This document shows, one piece after another, positions 384 to 15,204 of a DNA stretch of 16,988 nt. The stretch's first letter is position 1, and every line of letters starts with the position of its first letter. Origin of the DNA: a virus. Its lineage: Duplodnaviria; Heunggongvirae; Uroviricota; Caudoviricetes. The notes below the pieces were generated by a model, which was not told the origin of the DNA, made no database searches, and saw only the letters and a program-made list of their open reading frames with translations. A program made the position numbers and the translations under genes. The stretch spans positions 66,397-83,384 of IMG/VR virus record IMGVR_UViG_3300031853_000017; one strand, 5' to 3'.

Positions 384-668
384 ATGAAAATCACTTTAGA
401 AACTACTTGGAATTATATTCTATTAATTCCTTATGAAATGCCAAAACATAGCAATTTGGTTACAAATAGTAACGACACAAAATGCTTGGGAGAGGTTGTC
501 AATATTCATCGTTTTTATAGTGGGCATGACCTTGAAGAAGGCATTTATAATGAAGGAGATATTCTCATGTATGACATTAGAAAATCTCAGAAATATATAA
601 TTGACGGGAAAGAATACATTGTCGTTGCAGACAAAGATGTAATTGCGAGGGTAAAAATTGATGAATAA
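384..668 (+). CDS. groES: Divergent GroES/Cpn10-like co-chaperonin
   Basis: 94 aa, directly upstream of groEL. The C-terminal half EGDILMYD...KYIIDGKEYIVVADKDVIARV matches the GroES pattern GDxVxF...xxIDGEEYLIxxExDILAxV, and GEVV matches GEVLAV. The mobile loop is divergent. Confidence 0.75.
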   Translation: MKITLETTWNYILLIPYEMPKHSNLVTNSNDTKCLGEVVNIHRFYSGHDLEEGIYNEGDILMYDIRKSQKYIIDGKEYIVVADKDVIARVKIDE

Positions 669-2256
669 AAAAATTATTTATAAGGAAAATGCGCAAGAGA
701 AACTTCAAAACGGTGTTAATACCGTCGCTGAATGTGTAAAAGTAACTCTTGGCGCGAAAGGAAATTTTGTTTGTCTGGATAGAGATTACGGCTCTCCACT
801 TATCACAAATGACGGCGTGACCATTGCGAAAGAGGTAAAATTACCTGATGTGTTTGAAAATATGGGTGCAAAAATTGTATGCGAAGCGTCATCAAAGACC
901 AACAGCGATTCCGGCGACGGAACTACAACCGCAATCGTTCTCGCACAAGCATTGGTTAATGTTGGATTGCCATTGGTTAAGACAACAAGTGCTGTTTTGG
1001 TTAAGAATGGAATGGAAGCAGCGGTAAATGACGTTGTTGATTATATTAAGAAAAACTCTATTCCGGTACGCGGAGCAGACGACATAGCGAAAATCGCAAC
1101 AATTTCTTCCCGCGACTCTCAATTCGGACAGATTATTTCTGAAATTATCGAAAAGCTGGGCAATGACGTTGTAATAACGGTTGAAGAATCCCATACAGAT
1201 AATACTGAATATGAGATTGTAGAAGGATTGCGTTTTGATAAGGGCTATATTGCGCCACACATGGTAACAGATGTAGACAAAATGGTTGCAGAGTATGACA
1301 ACCCACTTATTTTGATTACCGACCAGAAGATAGTCAATATCAATGACATTATGCCAATTCTCGAAGAAGTTTCAAGCAACAGTAGAGCCTTGCTTATCAT
1401 TTCCGACGATTTGACAAATGAAGCAACTGGTATGCTTATCCAGAATAAACTTCGCGGAGTTCTCAATGTGGTTTGTGTTAAGCCGCCAAAATTCGGAGAA
1501 ATGCGCGAGTCATGGCTTGAAGATATAGCTGTTCTCACAGGTGGAACATTCATTAGTAGCAAACTTGGAATGAGCCTGAAAAATGCAACTGTTGAAAATC
1601 TTGGTTCAGCAAAGAAAATCAAGGTTGACAAAGATAGCACAACGATTATCGGCGGCAATGGAGATAAAAATGATTTACAAAACAGAATTAAATCACTTCA
1701 TGCCGAGATTGAGAAAGCAACATCAGATTTCGATAAAGAAAATTTCAAAGAGCGTCTTGCAAAGCTTACGAGCGGAATAGCGATTATTCGCGTCGGCGCT
1801 GCTACAGAAATCGAAATGAAGGACAAGAAGCTTCGCTTAGAGGACGCGCTTGCGGCTACGAGGGCTGCGATTGATGAAGGCATTGTTCCCGGCGGTGGTA
1901 TTGCTTATCTAAGGGCGTTTGATTCCATTGACCTTAATGCGGTTGGAAAAGATAATATTGATGGATATTATGCTGTTAAATCTGCATTGTTAGAGCCGTT
2001 TAATAATATCGTGAGAAATGCCGGACACGATTGCAAAAAACTCCGAGAACAATATAATCAAAACAAAGGCAAAAATCCGAATTACGGTTTTGATGTAATG
2101 AAGAATGATTTTGTTGATATGATTGAAAGCGGCATAATCGACCCCGCAAAGGTTACAAGAACAGCTCTGCAAAATGCTTTATCCGTTGCAACCATGATTA
2201 TTTCAACACAAGTTTTAATTGCCGATGAAAAAGAAGAATCTGAAACCAACCAATAA
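661..2256 (+). CDS. groEL: Group I chaperonin GroEL/Cpn60 (divergent, no GGM tail)
   Basis: Motifs KVTLGAKG, LITNDGVTIAKE, GDGTTT, EGLRFDKGY, RLAKLTSGIAIIRVGAATEIEMKDKKLRLEDAL, PGGG and GIIDPAKVTRTALQNA. ATG at 661 is preferred over TTG at 658; it overlaps the groES stop. Confidence 0.97.
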   Translation: MNKKIIYKENAQEKLQNGVNTVAECVKVTLGAKGNFVCLDRDYGSPLITNDGVTIAKEVKLPDVFENMGAKIVCEASSKTNSDSGDGTTTAIVLAQALVNVGLPLVKTTSAVLVKNGMEAAVNDVVDYIKKNSIPVRGADDIAKIATISSRDSQFGQIISEIIEKLGNDVVITVEESHTDNTEYEIVEGLRFDKGYIAPHMVTDVDKMVAEYDNPLILITDQKIVNINDIMPILEEVSSNSRALLIISDDLTNEATGMLIQNKLRGVLNVVCVKPPKFGEMRESWLEDIAVLTGGTFISSKLGMSLKNATVENLGSAKKIKVDKDSTTIIGGNGDKNDLQNRIKSLHAEIEKATSDFDKENFKERLAKLTSGIAIIRVGAATEIEMKDKKLRLEDALAATRAAIDEGIVPGGGIAYLRAFDSIDLNAVGKDNIDGYYAVKSALLEPFNNIVRNAGHDCKKLREQYNQNKGKNPNYGFDVMKNDFVDMIESGIIDPAKVTRTALQNALSVATMIISTQVLIADEKEESETNQ

Positions 2257-3004: not shown

Positions 3005-3607
3005 TTATATTGATTTTTGCAAATAAACATTCACAATATCGTTTTCCCATGCTGTTTTTCTATGGCTTTTTATCCATATACTATACTCCTTGAGGCGTAT
3101 AGCGCCGGCTTCTGCGGATAAACCGAACACAGATTGAATATCATGCGCATTTTTTATTCCTAAAACCTTAAACAGAGGAAATGGAGCTAATAATGTCGCG
3201 GCAAAACAATCAGCTTCAATTTCAAAATATTTATTGTGTATTTGCACAAAATCATTTTCCGCAATTTTGTCTAAAGCCGAAACCAAATGATGACCGCATT
3301 GAATGTGTCCTATTTCGTGTGCCATTGTCCATCTGCGGCGACCATAATTGCTTGTTTCAGAAAGGTTAATCAATATTAAATATCTGTTTGTTTCTACATC
3401 ATAATGAGTGCAGCCGGATTTACTTCTACATAAAGTAATAACATCGTTTACAGTACAATTATTGATTTGCGCGAATTTTTGATATGACATATATTTGCAG
3501 TTCGGCATGAACGGCAATATTCTGTCAAGTTGTAATGGAAATTGAATTTGCGGGAGTTGCGAATAAAGTTTTAATACCAAATTATTGATGTGGATTCTTC
3601 TAATCAT
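3005..3607 (-). CDS. ImmA/IrrE-family metallopeptidase (anti-repressor)
   Basis: RRRWTMAHEIGHIQCGH (HExxH), then EIEADCFAATLLAP (E-x-EA-x-x-FA motif). GGAGG RBS upstream on the minus strand. Confidence 0.9.
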   Translation of the reverse strand: MIRRIHINNLVLKLYSQLPQIQFPLQLDRILPFMPNCKYMSYQKFAQINNCTVNDVITLCRSKSGCTHYDVETNRYLILINLSETSNYGRRRWTMAHEIGHIQCGHHLVSALDKIAENDFVQIHNKYFEIEADCFAATLLAPFPLFKVLGIKNAHDIQSVFGLSAEAGAIRLKEYSIWIKSHRKTAWENDIVNVYLQKSI

Positions 3608-3682
3608 TGTGCTATAGCCTCCAATCTCTTTGACGCTTATTTTTAGTATAACAAAAAGCTTGGGCTATAAAACGGACATTGC

Positions 3683-4030
3683 TCAATTATCTTCATCAAA
3701 TGCGTAACCAAAAGCAAGTTTAATCATTTGTAAAGATTTAGTTTGGTCTTGTGGTGTCATTTTTTCTTTTCCGCGCTGTAGCGTGATGATGTAATCGTCG
3801 CCCAGAAGCTCAGACACAGGTGTTCTAATGTCAGTCCTGCCGAGCAGATAATCAACAGAAACATTAAAATATGTAGCGATTTTTGCTATTTTATCCATAG
3901 ACGGTGATGATGTGTTTTTCCATTTTTGGATTGATGAATAGCCTACTCCTAAATCGCTTTCTAATTTGTTGATTGTGATTCCGCGCTCAGTGCATAGTTC
4001 TTTAATGCGTTTGAATAAAATATTTTCCAT
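3683..4030 (-). CDS. XRE-family HTH repressor (ImmR/cI-like), 115 aa
   Basis: RIKELCTERGITINKLESDLGVGYSSIQKWKNTSSPSMDKIAKIATYFNVSVDYLLGRTD is a classic Cro/C1 HTH. Start moved to the ATG at 4030, which has a GGGAGGG RBS. Confidence 0.92.
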   Translation of the reverse strand: MENILFKRIKELCTERGITINKLESDLGVGYSSIQKWKNTSSPSMDKIAKIATYFNVSVDYLLGRTDIRTPVSELLGDDYIITLQRGKEKMTPQDQTKSLQMIKLAFGYAFDEDN

Positions 4031-4048
4031 GGAAATTCCCTCCCTTTT

Positions 4049-4138
4049 TTTAGTCCTATTTTCTTGAAAAAGTATTGACACCAAGAAATAAATCTGCTAA
4101 AATATAAACTAATCAAGAAAATGCGACTAAATTTTCTT
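4049..4138. promoter_or_regulatory. Candidate repressor operators
   Basis: The 18-mer CAAGAAAATnnGACTAAA occurs at 4114-4131 (+) and 4049-4066 (-), 16/18 identical. There is also a perfect inverted repeat AAGAAAAT-N8-ATTTTCTT at 4115-4138 and a further CAAGAAA at 4082. Confidence 0.6.
4075..4103 (+). promoter_or_regulatory. SigmaA-type rightward promoter (extended -10)
   Basis: TTGACA (4075-4080), 17-bp spacer, TG-n-TAAAAT (-10 at 4098-4103). Confidence 0.85.
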
Positions 4139-4139
4139 C

Positions 4140-4168
4140 ATTATACATTAAAAAATCTTGGAAGTCAA
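4140..4168 (-). promoter_or_regulatory. SigmaA-type leftward promoter for the repressor/peptidase operon
   Basis: Minus strand: TTGACT (4168-4163), 17-bp spacer, TATAAT (4145-4140). Confidence 0.85.
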
Positions 4169-4188
4169 TACATAGGAGGAAAATAATT

Positions 4189-4440
4189 ATGTTTTATGCT
4201 ACTTATAAAAAAGTAATAGATGATTGCAGTTTTGACGAAATCGCGGAATTTCAGACCGAACAGGAGCGTGACGATTGGGTTAATTCGCAAGACAGTATTT
4301 TTGAAAGAGAAGCCATTGACGATTTGGAGTTTTTAGGAATAGATTTAGCTGATTATTTTAAGGTTCCAGACACGTTCCCTTCAAAAGAACAATGGTATGC
4401 TACAAATGCTTACATAAGGAGGTTAAATAATGGCGATTAA
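4189..4440 (+). CDS. Small acidic hypothetical protein, first gene of the rightward operon
   Basis: Strong AGGAGG RBS at about 4174-4179; 83 aa; the end overlaps the next start. Confidence 0.75.
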   Translation: MFYATYKKVIDDCSFDEIAEFQTEQERDDWVNSQDSIFEREAIDDLEFLGIDLADYFKVPDTFPSKEQWYATNAYIRRLNNGD

Positions 4441-5287
4441 AGGCGCTATTATCGGAGATATAGTTGGTTCTCCATTTGAATTTAACAATATATACGCAAA
4501 ACAAAATATTAAGCCACAAGATATAGTGTTAAAAGTTGATAAAGGCACAATATATTGTGGTTATAATGATGATAAAACTACAATTTTATCAACTAAAAAG
4601 TGCCATTACACTGACGATACAGTGCTTTCTTTGGGCTTAAAATGGGCTATACAGCATAAAAAGTCATTTTCAGAGGGATTTGCCAAATTTGCGAAAAAAT
4701 ACCGAAATAGCGGATTTGGCGGCATGTTTTGTAATTGGGTAGATTCTGATGATAAGAAACCATATGGAAGTTATGGTAATGGCTCGGCTATGAGAGTTTC
4801 TTACATTGCAGACTTCTTTAATGACAAATTAAAAGTTGCTGAAATGGCAAGAGAATCGGCACTATGTACACATAATCATGAAGAAGGTGTAAAAGGTGCA
4901 GTAGCTACAGCAGTATGTATCGGAATGGCAAAACACGGTCTTGGGAAAGACGATATTCTAAGTTATGGTATTTCAATTTATCCAAAGGAGAAGTATGCTT
5001 ATAGCCCTGAGATACCTCTTTCTGAAATAAGGGAATATTATCGTTGGAATGAAACTTGTCATGGCAGCGTTCCGGCTGTTATTCGCTGCATTTATGAAGC
5101 AAACAATTATACCGAATTTATCAAAAATGTATTAAGTTTGCCATGCGATACTGATACATTATGCGCGATCGGCGGTGGTATTGCCGAGGAATTATTCGAC
5201 AATGGCGATGATGAATTATTATCACACACAGATGAAATCTTAGAAGAATATCTTGATGATTATTTATTAGCAGTATTAAAAGAATAA
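4430..5287 (+). CDS. ADP-ribosylglycohydrolase (DraG/ARH family)
   Basis: GAIIGDIVGS, YTDDT, GSYGNGSAMR, THNHEEGVKGA and DTDTLCAIGGGIAE are the metal-binding motifs of the ARH family. GGAGG RBS. Confidence 0.93.
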   Translation: MAIKGAIIGDIVGSPFEFNNIYAKQNIKPQDIVLKVDKGTIYCGYNDDKTTILSTKKCHYTDDTVLSLGLKWAIQHKKSFSEGFAKFAKKYRNSGFGGMFCNWVDSDDKKPYGSYGNGSAMRVSYIADFFNDKLKVAEMARESALCTHNHEEGVKGAVATAVCIGMAKHGLGKDDILSYGISIYPKEKYAYSPEIPLSEIREYYRWNETCHGSVPAVIRCIYEANNYTEFIKNVLSLPCDTDTLCAIGGGIAEELFDNGDDELLSHTDEILEEYLDDYLLAVLKE

Positions 5288-5351: not shown

Positions 5352-5378
5352 TATTACAGAGATGAAATGAGGGTAAAA

Positions 5379-6419
5379 ATGGTAAATAACATTAGTGAAT
5401 TACTAAAATCTCAGCCATATGATTTTCTAAGAAACAATGAAAACTTGGCAGAAAACATTATTCTTCTTGGATATGGAGGAAGTTATGCTTATGGAACAAA
5501 TAACGATAACTCTGATGTGGATATTCGTGGGATAGCTACAAACAGTTCGAGGAATATCCTCACAGGGCGGGATTTTGAACAGGTTGTAGATGTTCCTACG
5601 GACACGACGATCTATTCATTTGATAAAATCGTGAAATTACTTTGCTCCTGTAATCCTAACACGGTGGAAATTCTTGGGCTTAAACCAGAGCATTATTTCT
5701 TGCTTTCAGACGCAGGGCGAAAATTGATCGCAAATCGCCATTTATTTTTATCCAAATTAGCTATTCATTCTTTTGGAGGATATGCAAATGCGCAGCTCCG
5801 CCGTTTAGAAAACTTCACGGCAAGAAATTCAAGCCAATCTCAGTTAGAAAAACATATTCTTAAAAGTATCGAACACGCTTCGGTTGATTTCAAGAATAGA
5901 TATTTCGATATGCCGGAAGATTCAATCAAACTGTATATTGATAAATCTCCGCGAGATGATTACGAAACCGAAATCTTTTGTGACGTAACATTAAAGCATT
6001 ATCCTCTCCGTGACCATAAAGGTATGCTGAATGATATGGGAACAATTATTCAGCAGTATAAGAAAATGGGAAAAAGAAATAGTAAGGCTTATGAACATAA
6101 CAAAATAGGAAAGCATATGATGCACCTTGTTCGGCTTTATCTTATGGCTTTTGACATTCTTGAAAAGGGTGAAATCAATACCTACCGTGAGAAAGACCAT
6201 GATTTTCTTATGGAGATTCGTAATGGAAAATATCTTGATAGCAACCAGAAACCAACAAAAGAATTTTATGAGATCGTAAATGAATATGAGCACAAACTTG
6301 ACGATCTAAAAAATACAACAAATTTGCCGGAAGTTCCCGATATGGATAAAGTTATGGATTTAGTTGAAGAAATAAACGGAAATGTTATATGTAAAAATTG
6401 CGGATATTTTAATGGTTAA
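5379..6419 (+). CDS. Pol-beta-superfamily nucleotidyltransferase, RlaP-like (Nuc-transf family)
   Basis: GGSYAYGTNNDNSDVDIRG (GS..YG...SDxD), CNPNTVEIL and C-terminal KHMMHLVRLYLMAFDILEKG helix. ATG at 5379 (GAGGG RBS) is preferred over 5367. Confidence 0.85.
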   Translation: MVNNISELLKSQPYDFLRNNENLAENIILLGYGGSYAYGTNNDNSDVDIRGIATNSSRNILTGRDFEQVVDVPTDTTIYSFDKIVKLLCSCNPNTVEILGLKPEHYFLLSDAGRKLIANRHLFLSKLAIHSFGGYANAQLRRLENFTARNSSQSQLEKHILKSIEHASVDFKNRYFDMPEDSIKLYIDKSPRDDYETEIFCDVTLKHYPLRDHKGMLNDMGTIIQQYKKMGKRNSKAYEHNKIGKHMMHLVRLYLMAFDILEKGEINTYREKDHDFLMEIRNGKYLDSNQKPTKEFYEIVNEYEHKLDDLKNTTNLPEVPDMDKVMDLVEEINGNVICKNCGYFNG

Positions 6420-6428
6420 GAGGTATTT

Positions 6429-7397
6429 ATGAAAAAAGAAGATGTATTAAAATCTATTGGTTTGAAAAAGAGGTTTTGTAAAGATTGCAATTTACCGATT
6501 AACCTCTTTGACGAACCTTATTTTATGCAAAGGCTAAAAATACTCGATGCTCTGTTTGATTGTGTAAAAAAATTTGATACATTTTGCATAGAGCTTGAAT
6601 CTTTTGATGACGAGCAAAGTTATTTTGAATATTACAGCTCAGTAAAAGATAGTGTAATAACCATGATTAAAAATAGTCAAGGATATTACAAGTTTATAAA
6701 TGATGATTTTTCTGATGCGCGTATTATTAAACATACGGTTATGCTCGGAAAAAATAACCTATATGTGGAAGGTAATACCGACAAATCTTTTGTTTCAATA
6801 GATATGAATAAAGCGAATTTTTCCGCGCTTCGACATTATAATGCTGAAATATTCAAGAAGAAAGAAACATGGGAAGATTATATTGGTGCTTTCACATGGA
6901 GCGAACACATTAAAAACAGTAAGTATATCCGGCAGGTAATTCTTGGCGCTTGTAATCCTAAAAAGCAAATTACATACGAAACATATTTAATGACGATTCT
7001 ATATCTGCATATTAAAGATGTTCTTGGTGATAGAGTTAAATTTTATAGTTTAACTACCGATGAACTTATTATTGATATACAGAATACGAACTGTACTTTA
7101 AAAGAAATTGAAGAAGTAATTTCAAGCTGCCAACAGAATATTGGCTCTTTAGTACGCTGCGAATATTTCAAGTTGCGTAAAATAAGCAATTTTGGTTGGT
7201 TGAAAGAAATCTATAAGCATGATGAAAACAACGATATGTTCAAGGATAACATTGTGTTTAAAGGATTAAATGCCGATATTTACCACCAGATTGTTAAACA
7301 TTTCTTCGGTAACGAAATCACAGAAGATGATCTTGTGTTTCGTTACAATGGTGAACTTGCCCGTTTCTTGAAAGAGGTGGATAATCCGTGGAAATGA
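6429..7397 (+). CDS. Hypothetical protein with palm-polymerase-like acidic motifs
   Basis: 322 aa, GAGGT RBS. FVSIDMNKANFSAL and FYSLTTDELII resemble palm motifs A and C. The fold assignment is inference. Confidence 0.7.
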   Translation: MKKEDVLKSIGLKKRFCKDCNLPINLFDEPYFMQRLKILDALFDCVKKFDTFCIELESFDDEQSYFEYYSSVKDSVITMIKNSQGYYKFINDDFSDARIIKHTVMLGKNNLYVEGNTDKSFVSIDMNKANFSALRHYNAEIFKKKETWEDYIGAFTWSEHIKNSKYIRQVILGACNPKKQITYETYLMTILYLHIKDVLGDRVKFYSLTTDELIIDIQNTNCTLKEIEEVISSCQQNIGSLVRCEYFKLRKISNFGWLKEIYKHDENNDMFKDNIVFKGLNADIYHQIVKHFFGNEITEDDLVFRYNGELARFLKEVDNPWK

Positions 7398-8755
7398 ACA
7401 TTAAACTTCCAATGCCGGTACAGTTCATTCTCAATAGATTAAACGACAATGGTTATGAGGGATTTATTGTTGGCGGTTGTGTTAGAGATAGTCTTATGGG
7501 TATTAAACCGCATGATTGGGATATTTGTACATCCGCGCTGCCGGAGCAAGTGATGGAGTTGTTTAAAGACTTCAAAGTGATTCCAACAGGTATCAAACAC
7601 GGAACCGTATCTGTGGTTTTTGATGATAAGCCTGAAAATATTTTTGAAATAACCACTTACAGAATTGACGGAGAGTATAAAGATAATCGCCATCCAGAAA
7701 CGGTGAAGTTCGTTACAGACCTTGAATTAGACCTCTCTCGTAGAGATTTTACCATCAATGCTATTGCTTATAATGAGGTTAAAGGAATTGTTGACCCGTT
7801 CGGAGGATATGATGATATTATTGAAAAGCGTATAAAATGCGTTGGTAATCCAAATGATAGAATAAATGAGGACGCATTACGGATTATGAGAGCAATCAGG
7901 TTTGCACTCAGATTTAACTGTGATATTGATTCCGAAACATTATCAGCAATACATAAAAATAAAGATTTACTAAAAAAAGTATCGGCAGAACGAATTAACT
8001 CTGAATTAACAAAAATACTGAGTTATCCGCTTCTACCATTCAATCCTTCCGAATATAAAAAAACTCCATATAACGAAAGAATAAAAACCCAAGTTTACAT
8101 ACTGTTATATTTAATAGAATCAGTTGTCCCGTGGGCTGGATTTCTCAATGATAGAAAAACTTTTTATCGGCTGTGGTTTGCAAATTCATCAAATTGTGCA
8201 TTGAATTTGGCTATTATTTTGGGTAGTAATTTTGGGGATAAAACGTCTTTTGAAATACTCAAACAGTTAAGATTTTCAAATGAAATAATTGATTCCGTTG
8301 GGAAGATTCTTCAATATGCAGATGAAATAAGTAAGAGTTTTCATACTTGGGTAAGCACAAATTATGGTATTTTCCCATCAAAAATAAAAATATCAAAATA
8401 TTATGCACGAAAACTATTACACAATTTAGACTATATCACTATCAATCTTGCTTTGGATTGCGCAAAAGTTTTTTCTATTTATTCTGATAAACAGCCAATT
8501 AGTCAGCTTTTATATCTTGAATGTATTGAAAAATTACGAGAAGAAGTTAATAAATGCAGAGAAAATGGAGATGTTTATGATTTAAAATATCTTGCTGTGG
8601 ATGGAACTGATCTTATTTTGCTTGGATATAAAGGGAAAATAATTGGTGAAATTCTTGATAGTTTATTGGAAATGGTGATGAAAGATGAAATACCAAATAG
8701 CCGCGATTCTTTAATTTATACAATAAATACAACATTTGCGAGTGATTGCAAATAG
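7388..8755 (+). CDS. cca: Class II tRNA nucleotidyltransferase (CCA-adding enzyme)
   Basis: VGGCVRD...PHDWD (motif A), EITTYR plus flexible loop DGEYKDNRHP, DLSRRDFTINA (motif B), EDALRIMRAIRFA (motif D) and SAERINSEL. GTG start with GAGGTG RBS. Confidence 0.92.
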   Translation: MEMNIKLPMPVQFILNRLNDNGYEGFIVGGCVRDSLMGIKPHDWDICTSALPEQVMELFKDFKVIPTGIKHGTVSVVFDDKPENIFEITTYRIDGEYKDNRHPETVKFVTDLELDLSRRDFTINAIAYNEVKGIVDPFGGYDDIIEKRIKCVGNPNDRINEDALRIMRAIRFALRFNCDIDSETLSAIHKNKDLLKKVSAERINSELTKILSYPLLPFNPSEYKKTPYNERIKTQVYILLYLIESVVPWAGFLNDRKTFYRLWFANSSNCALNLAIILGSNFGDKTSFEILKQLRFSNEIIDSVGKILQYADEISKSFHTWVSTNYGIFPSKIKISKYYARKLLHNLDYITINLALDCAKVFSIYSDKQPISQLLYLECIEKLREEVNKCRENGDVYDLKYLAVDGTDLILLGYKGKIIGEILDSLLEMVMKDEIPNSRDSLIYTINTTFASDCK

Positions 8756-9081
8756 CAGAATATAAATGTCCGGAATGCGGCTGTGAAAGAGTATATTCAA
8801 TCCCAAAAGGTTTGCGGCATGGTGTGTATTGTGCAGAATGTAATACATGGATATGTTGGACTACCTATAAAAAAATGAAAGAAATCTATAAGCAAATAGA
8901 TAATGATAGTTTGAATGATGATGTGTCTATAAGAAAAACAAAAACACGAAATGGAATTACCAAAATGAATTGTGAAAAGTGTGGCTGCTTATTATATGAT
9001 TCGACATCACCAAAAGTGGAAGGGCAATTCGATTTGGTTAATGCTATTTACTGCCCAAAATGCGGTAGAAAACTAATTTAA
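8746..9081 (+). CDS. Double Zn-ribbon hypothetical protein
   Basis: Four CxxC pairs (CPEC, CAEC, CEKC, CPKC); TTG start overlapping the cca stop. Confidence 0.7.
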   Translation: MQIAEYKCPECGCERVYSIPKGLRHGVYCAECNTWICWTTYKKMKEIYKQIDNDSLNDDVSIRKTKTRNGITKMNCEKCGCLLYDSTSPKVEGQFDLVNAIYCPKCGRKLI

Positions 9082-9142: not shown

Positions 9143-10165
9143 ATGAGATTAAAGAATGAATGGATTAACGGCGATTGCTTGAAAGAGTTGAAAAAATTGC
9201 CGGATGAAAGCGTCCATCTTATCGTAACTTCACCTCCGTATCACAATCTAAGGGTTTACAGTAACGACCCTTGTGACTTATCTAATTGCGAGTCTTATGA
9301 TGAATATTATTATTTGCTTGGGCTTGTGATTGCCGAGTGCCAGCGCGTACTTGTGCCAGGGGGTAAATTTGTTCTTCAATACGAAGATTACAATTATACA
9401 ATAGGTAGAGATGGTAAAAACGGACAGGAAAGTTTAACTGGTAAGTTGAATGACATCTTTTTAGGATATGGTTTTTCGTTGTGGACAAAAGCATTTTGGC
9501 GTAAATATTCCGCTCAGAGAGCTATGCTTGCCCAGGGCAATTTATATTACAGGAACATGAAGGCAAGAGATACAATCCTTGCGGCAAACGTCGGCTTTGT
9601 TTATGTGTATAAAAAAGAGGGAGATTGTGAGTTAATCAAGGCTTCCGATATTACTCTTGCTGAATGGGCTGATTGGGCTGACGGTGTATGGAATATTCCA
9701 AATCAAGGAATTTCACATAGTACACCATTTGCAGAAGAACTTGTTAAAAGATGTATCAAACTCTGGTCTTGCCCTTATGATACCGTATTAGACCCATTCG
9801 CTGGTGCTGGAACAGTAAACAAAGTAGCCATAGAAAATCACAGAAATGCTATCGGAATTGAATTGCAAAAAGAGTATTACGATTTAGCTATTGAAAAAAG
9901 ATTTTCACTTTGGGACGATAGTATTTTTGAAACAGATGATTCTATTGAGAAAATGAAAGAGCGTTTTGCAGAACAACTTGCGATTGGTAAAGAACAGAGC
10001 GAAAACGCAAAGGCAGCAAAAGAGGAACAAAAACAATTGGCACAAAAGAAGAAAGATATTCGTGCAGAAATCAAGGAGCTTGAAACACAGTTAAAGGCTC
10101 TCGGCGTTAAAGCAAAAGAAATTAAGGAGATCAAAGATAATTCACTGAGGTTATTTAATGATTGA
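9143..10165 (+). CDS. Orphan beta-class DNA amino-methyltransferase (SPPY, likely m4C) with C-terminal coiled coil
   Basis: GDC...HLIVTSPPY, HSTPFAEELV and VLDPFAGAGT. Start moved to the ATG at 9143 (GGAG RBS at 9132). The last ~70 aa are Lys/Glu/Ala/Gln-rich and heptad-like. Confidence 0.9.
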   Translation: MRLKNEWINGDCLKELKKLPDESVHLIVTSPPYHNLRVYSNDPCDLSNCESYDEYYYLLGLVIAECQRVLVPGGKFVLQYEDYNYTIGRDGKNGQESLTGKLNDIFLGYGFSLWTKAFWRKYSAQRAMLAQGNLYYRNMKARDTILAANVGFVYVYKKEGDCELIKASDITLAEWADWADGVWNIPNQGISHSTPFAEELVKRCIKLWSCPYDTVLDPFAGAGTVNKVAIENHRNAIGIELQKEYYDLAIEKRFSLWDDSIFETDDSIEKMKERFAEQLAIGKEQSENAKAAKEEQKQLAQKKKDIRAEIKELETQLKALGVKAKEIKEIKDNSLRLFND

Positions 10166-11661
10166 ACTTGAAATCCCTGTTGAGCAAATACCGTACATCA
10201 GAACAATCGAAGGAAGAAAATTTAGAGATGGCAAGTGGCAATTTCCCGATTCATCACTAAATAAGTTAATTCAATTAGGCTTGGTTTCATCAGATACTAA
10301 GCCTATTGAAAAGACTATGAAACAATATTCTATATCACCGTTTCTGCGTAATTATCAAAAAGAAATTTGCAACAAGGCATTAAACGCTGAAAATTATGGT
10401 GTCTTTGCCGACACAGGTACGGGTAAAACCGTTATGGGTTTGGAAATAGCAAAATTTTACTCCAAGTCACTGATTTTGTGTCCTTTATCTGTAATAGAAA
10501 CAGCTTGGATTGATGATTGCCGAAAATTTTACCCAAATAGAAAAATTATTAATGTTTGGGGAAACTCAAAAGCAGAAAGGCTCAAAAGCAGAAAGGCTTA
10601 AACACCTAAATACCGAAGCTGATATTTATGTGATGAATTACGATAGTTTTAAGATACTTCGCAACGAAATTCGCAAAGCTAATTTTGATTGTATTGTGGT
10701 TGATGAAAGTAGCGTAATGAAAAATATGAAAAGCCAAATTACTGCTATGCTTTTAGATATTGCGACTATTATTCCGCACAGATTTGTTTTGAGTGGATGC
10801 CCCACACCCAATCATAATAGTGAAATATTTCCCCAAATGAAATTTGTGAATCCAGAGGTTTTTGGAAACAACTACTATGGATTTCTTGCAAAATATTTTC
10901 ATCAGGATATGTCAAATCCGCACTATTGGTTTCAAACTGACGAAGATAAAGACCGATACTATCAAAGACTTGATGAACAATCAGTTTTCCTAAAGAAAGA
11001 AGATTGTTTAGACCTTCCCGAACAAGTCTTTGAAATTCGCAAATTTGATATGTCAAAAACTCAAAGACGCTACTATGACGATATTGAGAATGATATTCGT
11101 GAACATATAAATCAATGGAGCAAATTTGAGTTTACCGCCAAGTTAATGAAACTCCGCGAGGTCGTTAGTGGTTTCGTAATCAATAAAGACAAGACTATAA
11201 CCACATTTGATAACGACAAAGAGAAACTATTACAAGAAGTCGTTTCCGAAATTGGCAATCAACCGATTATTGTATGGTGTCAGTTTACGCACGAAATTGA
11301 ATCACTTGCAAAGAAATTTAACGGCGTGGCATTAACATCTAAAACCAAAAATCGTGATGATATTATCCGGCAGTTTAAGAATAACAAAATCAATTTATTA
11401 TTCACGCACCCAAAACTAATCGGCAAAGGTTTAACCTTTACTAATTGCACTTACAATATTTACTATTCTATGAGTTTTAGCTATGAAGAATTTAAGCAAA
11501 GTAAAGATAGGATTCACAGAATAGGTCAAGGCAATAAATGCACATACATAATTTTACAGGCTAATAACTCCATTGAAGAAAAGATTTACGATTGTGTCCA
11601 GCGAAAAGGGAATGCAGTTGATGAATTGTATCTTGAAATGGGACTAAGAAACGCGAGTTAG
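10158..11661 (+). pseudogene. SNF2-family helicase split by a frameshift
   Basis: The first ORF holds Walker A (DTGTGKT). The second holds DESS, LSGCP, GKGLTFT and QSKDRIHRIGQ. Removing one 16-bp copy at 10565-10596 gives a single 495-aa ORF. Confidence 0.9.
10565..10598 (+). repeat. 16-bp tandem duplication (CTCAAAAGCAGAAAGG)x2 + CT
   Basis: Read directly from the sequence: copies at 10565-10580 and 10581-10596. Confidence 0.95.
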
Positions 11662-13902: not shown

Positions 13903-13971
13903 AAATAGGCATAAATGACAACAAATGACAATAAATATGACGATAAAAGTGTGGTTTTATTGACAAGAAGA

Positions 13972-15204
13972 ATGAAAATTGCAATTATTGATGCTGACAT
14001 TGTTGGGAAAAAGAAGCATAGATTCCCTAATTTATGTTGTATGAAAATTTCTGCTTATCATAAACAGCTTGGGAATGAGGTAACATTAAAGACTGATTAC
14101 GAGAATTTAGATTGTTTTGATAAGGTCTATATCAGTAAAGTTTTTACTGATACTGAAATTCCTTGTGAGCCAAAAGATAAGACAAATAAAAATTCTGACA
14201 CTATTTCAGAGTGGTATGCTGATAATGAATTTCTTAAACAACCAAATATCGAGTACGGTGGGACAGGCTTCTTTTATGATAAAGCCCCATCTTTGCCAAA
14301 TGAAATAGAACATATAATGCCCGACTATCATCTATATGATGAATGGGTGCAATCGGCAATAAATAGCGGTAAGAAGCGTTCTGAATTTACATACTATCTT
14401 GATTATTCTATCGGTTATTTGACTCGGCATTGTTTTCGTGGTTGTTATTATTGCGTAAATCGTAATTATAAATGTGCGATTAGTGCAAGCCCACTATCTG
14501 AATTTATGGATGAATCTCGTCCTAAACTATGTTTTCTTGACGATAATTTTTTAAGTTATTCACATTGGAAAAACCTTATTCAACCTGTAATCGAAAGTGG
14601 CAAAAGGTTTCAATTCAAACAAGGGCTTGATGAAAGACTATTAACAAAAGAAAAGATTATCGAAATATCCAAATGGAAGTATGATGGTGAAGTAATTTTC
14701 GCTTTTGATAATATCGAAGATAAAGAACTGATTATCTCGAAACTTAAACTTATCCGCGAAACTGTTCCTGATTGGAAACGCGAATTAAAATTTTATGTAT
14801 TTTGTGGCTGTGATAAGAATGATAAGTATGATAAAGAATTTTGGAAGAACGATATTATAAATTTGTTCGATAGAATTGATATTCTTAGTCAATTCGGGGC
14901 AAAACCATATATAATGCGTTTTGAAAAAGTTTACAATTCCGAATATTCATCTTTTTATGCTGCCGTAGCTGCGTGGTGTAATCAGCCATCAATTTTTAAT
15001 ACATTTACGTTTCGTTTGTTTTGCCAATGTCGCGGAATGAGAAGAAATGGATATAAAACGTATAAACGAGATATTGATGGATATTTAGAAAACATTGGAA
15101 TTAAGGGTTCTGAATGGCGTAATATGGAATGGATTGAAAATATATATCCTGAAATTGCCAATAAATATTACGACTTCAATGGAAGGTCAAATAGAAAATA
15201 TTGA
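13972..15204 (+). CDS. Radical SAM protein of a phage-associated type
   Basis: CFRGCYYC (CxxxCxxC), FLDDNF and FKQGLDERLL. The N-terminus MKIAIIDAD...FPNLCCMKISAYHK is typical of uncharacterised Firmicutes phage radical SAM proteins. Start may be 13972 or 13915. Confidence 0.85.
   Translation: MKIAIIDADIVGKKKHRFPNLCCMKISAYHKQLGNEVTLKTDYENLDCFDKVYISKVFTDTEIPCEPKDKTNKNSDTISEWYADNEFLKQPNIEYGGTGFFYDKAPSLPNEIEHIMPDYHLYDEWVQSAINSGKKRSEFTYYLDYSIGYLTRHCFRGCYYCVNRNYKCAISASPLSEFMDESRPKLCFLDDNFLSYSHWKNLIQPVIESGKRFQFKQGLDERLLTKEKIIEISKWKYDGEVIFAFDNIEDKELIISKLKLIRETVPDWKRELKFYVFCGCDKNDKYDKEFWKNDIINLFDRIDILSQFGAKPYIMRFEKVYNSEYSSFYAAVAAWCNQPSIFNTFTFRLFCQCRGMRRNGYKTYKRDIDGYLENIGIKGSEWRNMEWIENIYPEIANKYYDFNGRSNRKY

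Follow-up and report, generated by a model that had tools for sequence, protein, structure and literature searches.

A candidate minimal right-hand polymerase family associated with phage RNA repair modules

A phage from the class Caudoviricetes (virus record IMGVR_UViG_3300031853_000017) carries a gene for an unannotated 322-amino acid protein, here called protein X. This protein is probably an active minimal right-hand polymerase whose layout resembles that of family B DNA polymerases (PolB), and it appears to function alongside the RNA 3'-end nucleotidyltransferase RlaP and, in most cases, a CCA-adding enzyme as part of a phage module for the repair of RNA (tRNA). The polymerase-like predicted fold, the polymerase-type active site, and the location of the gene between enzymes for RNA-end repair thus indicate that protein X is probably an undescribed polymerase that helps phages of gut bacteria to rebuild tRNAs.

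The gene for protein X occupies positions 6429-7397 (+) of the 16,988-nucleotide stretch of DNA that we analyzed (the window), which is the final 17 kb of the 83-kb fragment in the virus record. Its frame is open for 322 codons. The Shine-Dalgarno (SD) sequence AAGAGG, read directly from the DNA at positions 6418-6423 (+), lies 5 nucleotides ahead of the ATG, and the TGA stop codon (7395-7397) overlaps the start of the gene for the CCA-adding enzyme. An earlier note on this DNA had proposed exactly this ORF, and described the product as unannotated and as carrying two acidic motifs separated by about 85 residues with a basic motif between them. These statements were borne out. The quoted motifs are present as FVSIDMNKANF (residues 121-131; 6789-6821, +), SKYIRQVILG (residues 164-173), and FYSLTTDELII (residues 205-215; 7041-7073, +), the distance from D125 to D211 is 86 residues, and protein X has no match in Pfam, PHROGs, NCBIfam, or PADLOC. 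The fragment is ~53% complete as estimated by CheckV, and therefore the phage genome is probably near 150 kb in size.

Protein X has many relatives. A word-indexed search recovered 381 of these, none of which carries a name or a Pfam domain, and when 1.84 billion cluster representatives were searched with a profile, 1,827 clusters (50% identity) passed E<=0.001 and 692 passed the stricter cutoff of E<=1e-30. When 131 family members were compared with Pfam at E<=1, the only matches were near-noise scores of 5 members to the Y-family polymerase model IMS (best E 0.021) and of 1 member to RVT_1. Searches of PDB sequences with protein X by phmmer or by profile yielded no match. Genes of this family in cellular genomes are confined to Clostridia, where the nearest are from Ruminococcus (80% and 64% identity) followed by those from Lachnospiraceae, and thus these bacteria are the likely phage hosts. 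Two loci (L115, L117) have ORFs of ~500 amino acids with an extra N-terminal part that lacks a Pfam domain, and this additional length may be due to over-extended ORF calls. In a metagenomic protein of 481 amino acids (P0265), the X domain appears to be fused to the C-terminal vWA-like part of DUF444 (PF04285), which would be a second fusion in addition to the one described below.

Conservation was evaluated by using an alignment of 139 sequences, consisting of the query and 138 representatives that are each 29-50% identical to it. Residues S123, D125, N130, S164, K165, R168, G173, D211, E212, K278, and D301 are each conserved at 96-99%, and A129 and F131 at 91-92%. The equivalent of polymerase motif A (residues 121-131) is built around D125 (98%), N130 (96%), and F131 (91%). 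The motif B equivalent, SKYIRQVILGACNPK (residues 164-178; 6918-6962, +), includes S164 and K165 (both 99%), R168 (98%), and G173 (96%), and corresponds to a basic fingers helix. In the motif C equivalent (residues 205-215), D211 and E212 are both conserved at 99% and lie at the turn of a hairpin. Farther downstream, the lysine at K278 (7260-7262, +; 98%) ends a strand that spans residues 270-278 and may correspond to the KxY lysine of PolB or to the lysine of motif D, and the acidic residue D301 (7329-7331, +; 99%) is part of a C-terminal DLVF strand. Family-wide, motif A reads D-M-K-K-A-N-F and the hairpin reads x-D-E-I-I-I, and a basic block near the N terminus (LKKRFCK) is also conserved.

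The three motifs that had drawn attention to this protein go beyond chance, as conservation within the family is highest in these blocks. The conservation of the two Asp residues in homologs, which had been suggested as a check of the palm idea, was observed for D125 (98%) and D211 (99%) alike across the 139 sequences. As judged from the alignment, protein X is the product of a real gene whose polymerase-like set of acidic and basic residues is strongly constrained.

An AlphaFold2 model computed from a 26-sequence alignment has a pLDDT of 91.8 and a pTM of 0.85. Residues 1-100 of the model form a helical N-terminal domain. The palm begins with a strand (120-126) that ends in D125, followed by a helix (129-142) and then by a helical insert (148-202) located between the acidic motifs. 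This insert carries K165 and R168 and includes helices at 165-174 and 177-202. The palm then continues with the hairpin of motif C, a helix (224-241), and a strand (242-252). Two more strands follow, the second of which ends in K278, and the model closes with a small C-terminal element. Thus the features that were initially read from the amino acid sequence have structural counterparts in the model: the hydrophobic strand plus Asp is the strand at 120-126, the basic helix SKYIRQVILG coincides with the helix at 165-174, and the hairpin-like motif is a beta-hairpin (205-208 / 212-216).

The order of these elements as assigned by DSSP is beta-alpha-beta-beta-alpha-beta, with the fingers inserted past the first strand and helix, and the conserved carboxylates are at the end of strand 1 and in the hairpin of strands 2 and 3. 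An RRM-like palm with a fingers insert is described as the layout of right-hand polymerases in a jumbo-phage survey (PMC7824862). The model therefore agrees with the proposal of a minimal polymerase palm, in that the RRM-like palm has its acidic motifs in the places of motifs A and C and a basic helix between them. The clustering of D125 with D211 and E212 in space is a prediction that follows only from the RRM topology. Protein X had also been described as lacking both an exonuclease and a thumb. The first of these statements holds, as a protein of 322 residues whose N-terminal 100 are helical leaves no room for an exonuclease. The second is uncertain, because residues 280-322 align loosely to the PolB thumb in several of the structural matches. 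Even so, the predicted thumb appears to be rudimentary at best, which would be unusual for a templated polymerase.

Fold searches of the kind recommended in the earlier note returned mostly palm enzymes, with family B polymerases first in every library. Foldseek placed Pol alpha at the top of the PDB matches (E 2e-4, probability 1.0), and when the top Foldseek matches were re-aligned with VIA, 50 of the 50 rows listed were family B proteins with Z scores up to 8.6. These alignments include 209-268 residues and span model residues 1-322. All 30 rows listed for Swiss-Prot models are likewise family B, and a shape search of the ESM Atlas gave TM values of 0.57-0.61 over 263-282 residues for PF00136 clusters among the named rows. 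A VIA search of 48,161 chains without Foldseek preselection again ranked family B at the top (Z 7.5), followed at lower ranks by DRT6, family A polymerases, DGR and group II reverse transcriptases (RTs), Y-family polymerases, Abi-P2, and GGDEF cyclases (Z 5-6.6). Chains with Z >5 in this search are mainly right-hand polymerases and GGDEF cyclases, and the second-tier matches span the palm core only. Herpesvirus UL8-type helicase-primase subunits are among the fold matches, and no Thg1 or Cas10 entries are among the fold-search matches listed. Judged from aligned ranges, which give end points only, D125 falls within about 3 residues of the PolB motif A Asp, which we take to be D411 in RB69, D717 in HSV-1, and D860 in human Pol alpha. 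The Z scores of 7.5-8.6 lie in the band that VIA grades as middling, and therefore our claim is that protein X has a right-hand polymerase fold with a layout closest to PolB, not that it is a member of family B.

Upstream of the gene for protein X is one for a 350-amino acid Pol-beta nucleotidyltransferase of the RlaP family (5367-6419, +; PF10127, E 1.1e-14; phrog_388, E 4e-52), and downstream is one for a CCA-adding tRNA nucleotidyltransferase (7388-8755, +, starting with GTG at 7388 or ATG at 7394; PF01743, E 7e-36; NF009814, E 1e-80). Among 80 viral loci from IMG/VR, the RlaP gene is located directly upstream of the X gene in 77, and of the three remaining loci, two are truncated by the end of the contig. 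RlaP was also detected in 17 of the 26 cellular loci. The RlaP and X genes usually abut or overlap, and in 65 of the 80 viral loci the X gene is followed by one for a CCA-adding enzyme.

Loci that do not carry a CCA-adding enzyme have genes for other RNA-repair or tRNA-salvage enzymes after X. The enzymes found beside X include an RNA ligase with an OB/tRNA-binding domain (L021, L095), a fusion of a Pnkp-like kinase-phosphatase with an Rnl1 ligase at a locus that has no RlaP (L031), the peptidyl-tRNA hydrolase PTH2 (L072), and a NUDIX protein (L086). DHH/DHHA1 phosphoesterases occur in 34 of the 80 viral loci (L071 and L077 included) and Rnl-type ligases in 12. No match to the RNA ligase family PF09414 was found in the 83-kb fragment, which represents ~53% of the genome. 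The X gene is thus linked to an RlaP module through RlaP itself, the CCA-adding enzyme, and other neighbors that act in RNA-end repair. Furthermore, a protein of 839 amino acids (P0250) is a natural RlaP-X fusion, and the order of the RlaP and X genes is reversed at one locus (L114), which argues that the link is functional rather than the result of inherited synteny alone. Therefore the original description of protein X as a stand-alone enzyme is not appropriate given the near-obligate pairing with RlaP, the overlapping genes, the fusion, and the setting in an RNA-repair module.

Such a close partnership, with overlapping frames and one fusion, would also be expected if protein X were a non-catalytic pseudo-polymerase that binds the ends of tRNAs or other RNAs and positions them for RlaP. 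A precedent exists in UL8, an inactivated PolB-like subunit of the herpesvirus helicase-primase whose relatives appear among the fold matches, and the conserved LKKRFCK block could bind RNA. However, D125, D211, E212, K165, R168, and K278 are conserved at 98-99% even in very divergent members, which is unlike what a scaffold would display. In addition, some copies of X adjoin RNA ligase genes where RlaP is not detectable (L031, L095, L096). We therefore consider it unlikely that protein X serves only as a binding partner of RlaP, and favor an active polymerase.

RlaP does not generally depend on protein X, as evident from cultured-phage records in which RlaP is found 364 times and X only 3 times. 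No X-sized gene is annotated beside RlaP in Bacillus phage BCP01 or in Cronobacter phage EspYZU14. The latter phage (L091; Vequintavirinae) encodes RlaP and a tRNA nucleotidyltransferase at positions 393-1646 and 3474-4535, which are about 2 kb apart. Thus the pairing of RlaP with a CCA-adding enzyme is broader than the X family.

We also considered whether the CCA-adding enzyme might be used for maturing the phage's own tRNAs. The phage has 15 tRNA genes and CCA is encoded in 13 of these, so we rejected this candidate role and conclude that the enzyme serves repair rather than maturation. One of the 15 is a 72-nucleotide ARAGORN call outside the window (G000:C1:33473-33544) with the anticodon UCA, which reads UGA. 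It carries the label tRNA-SeC, and its CCA is not encoded. The call could be false, or the product could be a suppressor tRNA.

The remaining genes in the window are less frequent companions of X, with ADP-ribosylglycohydrolases in 17, zinc-ribbon proteins in 14, methyltransferases in 18-19, and SNF2 proteins in 6-7 of the 80 loci. The ADP-ribosylglycohydrolase (PF03747, phrog_6572; 4430-5287, +) is encoded early after a repressor/ImmA-like switch, and its homologs are located upstream of RlaP-X. Its presence suggests a counter to ADP-ribosylating host toxins that has been grouped with the RNA-repair genes. A 111-amino acid Cys-rich zinc-ribbon protein (8746-9081, +) is encoded directly after the CCA-adding enzyme, with which it co-occurs in the 14 loci noted above, and possibly assists the module as an accessory factor that binds RNA. 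At one locus (L001), a gene for a 108-amino acid protein is in the position that the zinc-ribbon gene has here.

Three other sets of genes in the window deserve mention. A chaperonin pair consisting of a GroES-like protein (94 amino acids) and GroEL (532 amino acids; phrog_5725, E 8e-153) is encoded at 384-2256 (+). A protein of 429 amino acids (13915-15204, +) matches the radical SAM domain protein phrog_9298 (E 1e-48), and no Pfam match was found for it at E<=0.01. An SNF2-type helicase is split between two overlapping ORFs (10158-10601 and 10510-11661, +), one with the ResIII/DEAD N-terminal part and the other with the SNF2 and Helicase_C parts, pointing to either a frameshift or a small duplication.

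The DNA methyltransferases and the SNF2 helicase in this neighborhood, together with the fact that DNA polymerases are the best structural matches, raise the question of whether protein X is a small DNA polymerase for phage DNA replication, repair, or modification whose linkage to RNA enzymes merely reflects shared placement among early genes. A search of the 83-kb fragment for PF00136 polymerases yielded none, which could be taken to favor this idea, but the fragment is only ~53% complete and the replicative polymerase may therefore be elsewhere in the genome. Covariation of X is limited to RlaP, the CCA-adding enzyme, and RNA-repair genes, whereas methyltransferases and SNF2 proteins are present in 6-19 of the 80 loci. 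Moreover, protein X has neither an exonuclease nor a clear thumb, and its fusion partner RlaP rejects DNA (PMC12776372). A role in DNA synthesis consequently seems improbable to us. Least likely, and by our estimate very improbable, is that protein X is a Thg1-like 3'-5' polymerase for tRNA 5' ends, an activity that would suit tRNA repair and the D...DE triad, or a signal cyclase similar to GGDEF or Cas10 enzymes, as GGDEF domains match only about 115-120 palm-core residues (Z 5-6) whereas PolB matches include up to 268 residues with N- and C-terminal parts, the helical fingers insert that separates motif A from motif C, with a length of approximately 80 residues, is typical of 5'-3' polymerases, the hairpin reads (G/T/N)xDE with no GG(D/E)EF motif, and no effector or sensor genes for signaling are linked. 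Accordingly, neither the Thg1-like 5'-end repair nor the nucleotide-signal synthesis that had been suggested for this protein is favored in view of the fingers insert, the full-length PolB-like layout, and the lack of signaling partners.

RNA repair as currently understood relies on ligases, template-independent Pol-beta-type nucleotidyltransferases, and end-healing enzymes. RlaP reportedly received its name in a 2016 paper by Burroughs and Aravind. A study of this enzyme (PMC12776372) states that it was named after its association with RNA ligases, that it puts 1-2 NMPs on RNA 3'-OH ends with a preference for damaged tRNA mimics, and that its untemplated addition mostly restores the wrong nucleotide. 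RlaP, CCA-adding enzymes, and Thg1 are the phage enzymes that restore missing nucleotides at RNA ends according to the jumbo-phage survey (PMC7824862).

If protein X is indeed an active polymerase of the RlaP module, a pathway can be envisioned in which D125 and the D211-E212 pair of the palm would promote two-metal nucleotidyl transfer onto an RNA 3'-OH. More speculatively, the protein might refill base-paired positions of a damaged tRNA stem by using the opposite strand as template. RlaP could then contribute one or more untemplated nucleotides, with the final step left to the CCA-adding enzyme or an RNA ligase. Alternatively, the synthesis by protein X may be template-independent extension, as had been listed among the options in the earlier note. 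Use of ribonucleotides is hinted at by the near-invariant Asn130, which is located at D+5 from the motif A Asp. An aromatic steric gate is found near D+5 in B-family, Y-family, and RT enzymes, and viral RdRps have an Asp that senses the 2'-OH.

A more ambitious version of this model is that protein X founds a new class of RNA-repair enzymes, namely PolB-like template-dependent ribonucleotide polymerases that copy the opposite strand to rebuild the base-paired 3' strand of truncated or gapped tRNA stems before RlaP adds the unpaired discriminator base and the CCA-adding enzyme adds CCA. We offer this version only tentatively and consider it doubtful. If true, protein X would mirror, in the 5'-3' direction, the repair of 5' ends by Thg1-like enzymes, and the three enzymes would constitute a pathway for a complete tRNA 3' end that allows phages of gut Clostridia to survive host defenses that target tRNAs. 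We know of no tRNA-stem-cutting defense in Clostridia hosts, and the module would point to undescribed tRNA-directed defenses in these gut bacteria.

More generally, a widespread palm-fold polymerase in RNA-repair modules would add a possibly templated synthesis step, and such a step could solve the wrong-nucleotide problem that is reported for RlaP (PMC12776372). Protein X would also rank among the smallest right-hand polymerases and could therefore provide a compact scaffold for enzymology and engineering. If this large unannotated family were named, many phage and giant-virus genomes could be annotated more fully.

Among known polymerases, those of family B (Pol alpha, HSV-1 UL30, RB69 gp43, phi29 gp2; PF00136/PF03175) share with protein X a helical N terminus, an RRM-like palm, helical fingers that separate motif A from motif C, and an additional piece at the C terminus. 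However, protein X is one third of their size, lacks the exonuclease domain, and has at most a rudimentary thumb. Its motif C has the acidic pair D-E rather than DTD, giving a D...DE triad, its motif A lacks SLYPS and has Asn where the steric-gate Tyr would be, and its genomic setting is RNA repair rather than replication. The family B motifs DxxSLYPS and (Y)xDTDS are not present in protein X, where the first Asp and the hairpin position alone correspond. No profile match to PF00136 or PF03175 was found for protein X in Pfam or for the 131 members at E<=1. An hhalign comparison of the X family with a phi29-type PolB profile gave a probability of <1%, although this negative result is weak because the profile is narrow (members at least 63% identical). 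Because there is no sequence signal, no SLYPS, and no exonuclease, and because the triad is D...DE, we do not file protein X under family B and instead regard it as a distinct family in the palm-polymerase superfamily.

The acidic arrangement of protein X, in which one Asp closes strand 1 and an Asp-Glu pair occupies the hairpin, is shared by Y-family polymerases, A-family polymerases, and Thg1. Triads of the D...DE type include D7/D105/E106 in Dpo4 and D705/D882/E883 in the Klenow fragment, and also occur in Thg1. The motif A sequence of protein X, h-h-h-D-M-x-x-A-x-F, is much like that of the Y-family. Structures of Y-family and A-family enzymes nevertheless match protein X in the palm only (Z 5-6), and protein X lacks both a little-finger domain and an O-helix motif and gave no significant sequence match.

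Closer in overall shape are look-alikes from giant viruses and phages, which match over their full length with TM values of 0.7-0.8 at about 20% identity. Some of these are named R3H domain proteins (e.g. A0A1V0SKG9 from Klosneuvirus KNV1) and differ from protein X by adding an R3H single-strand nucleic-acid-binding domain or other extensions. These look-alikes and protein X probably constitute one superfamily. A medusavirus look-alike of 695 amino acids is named as a DEDDy exonuclease.

We did not find the X family described in the literature searched, which did not include the 2016 report by Burroughs and Aravind that introduced RlaP, and a palm-fold partner of RlaP is not mentioned in the accessible parts of the RlaP biochemistry preprint, the jumbo-phage survey, or surveys of PolB and other DNA polymerases. 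The loci that carry the X gene resemble known RlaP-containing repair systems in that their RlaP proteins are of one family and follow a common logic of restoring nucleotides at damaged RNA ends. RlaP also has the same companions in both, specifically CCA-adding enzymes, RNA ligases, Pnkp-like enzymes, and peptidyl-tRNA hydrolase. The difference is that RlaP is accompanied by ligases in the published systems, as far as the available text of these reports extends (PMC12776372, PMC7824862), whereas in the loci described here protein X is constant and the ligase is optional. Thus, protein X appears to represent a novel family of minimal right-hand polymerases inside phage RNA repair modules, which are themselves a familiar type of system.
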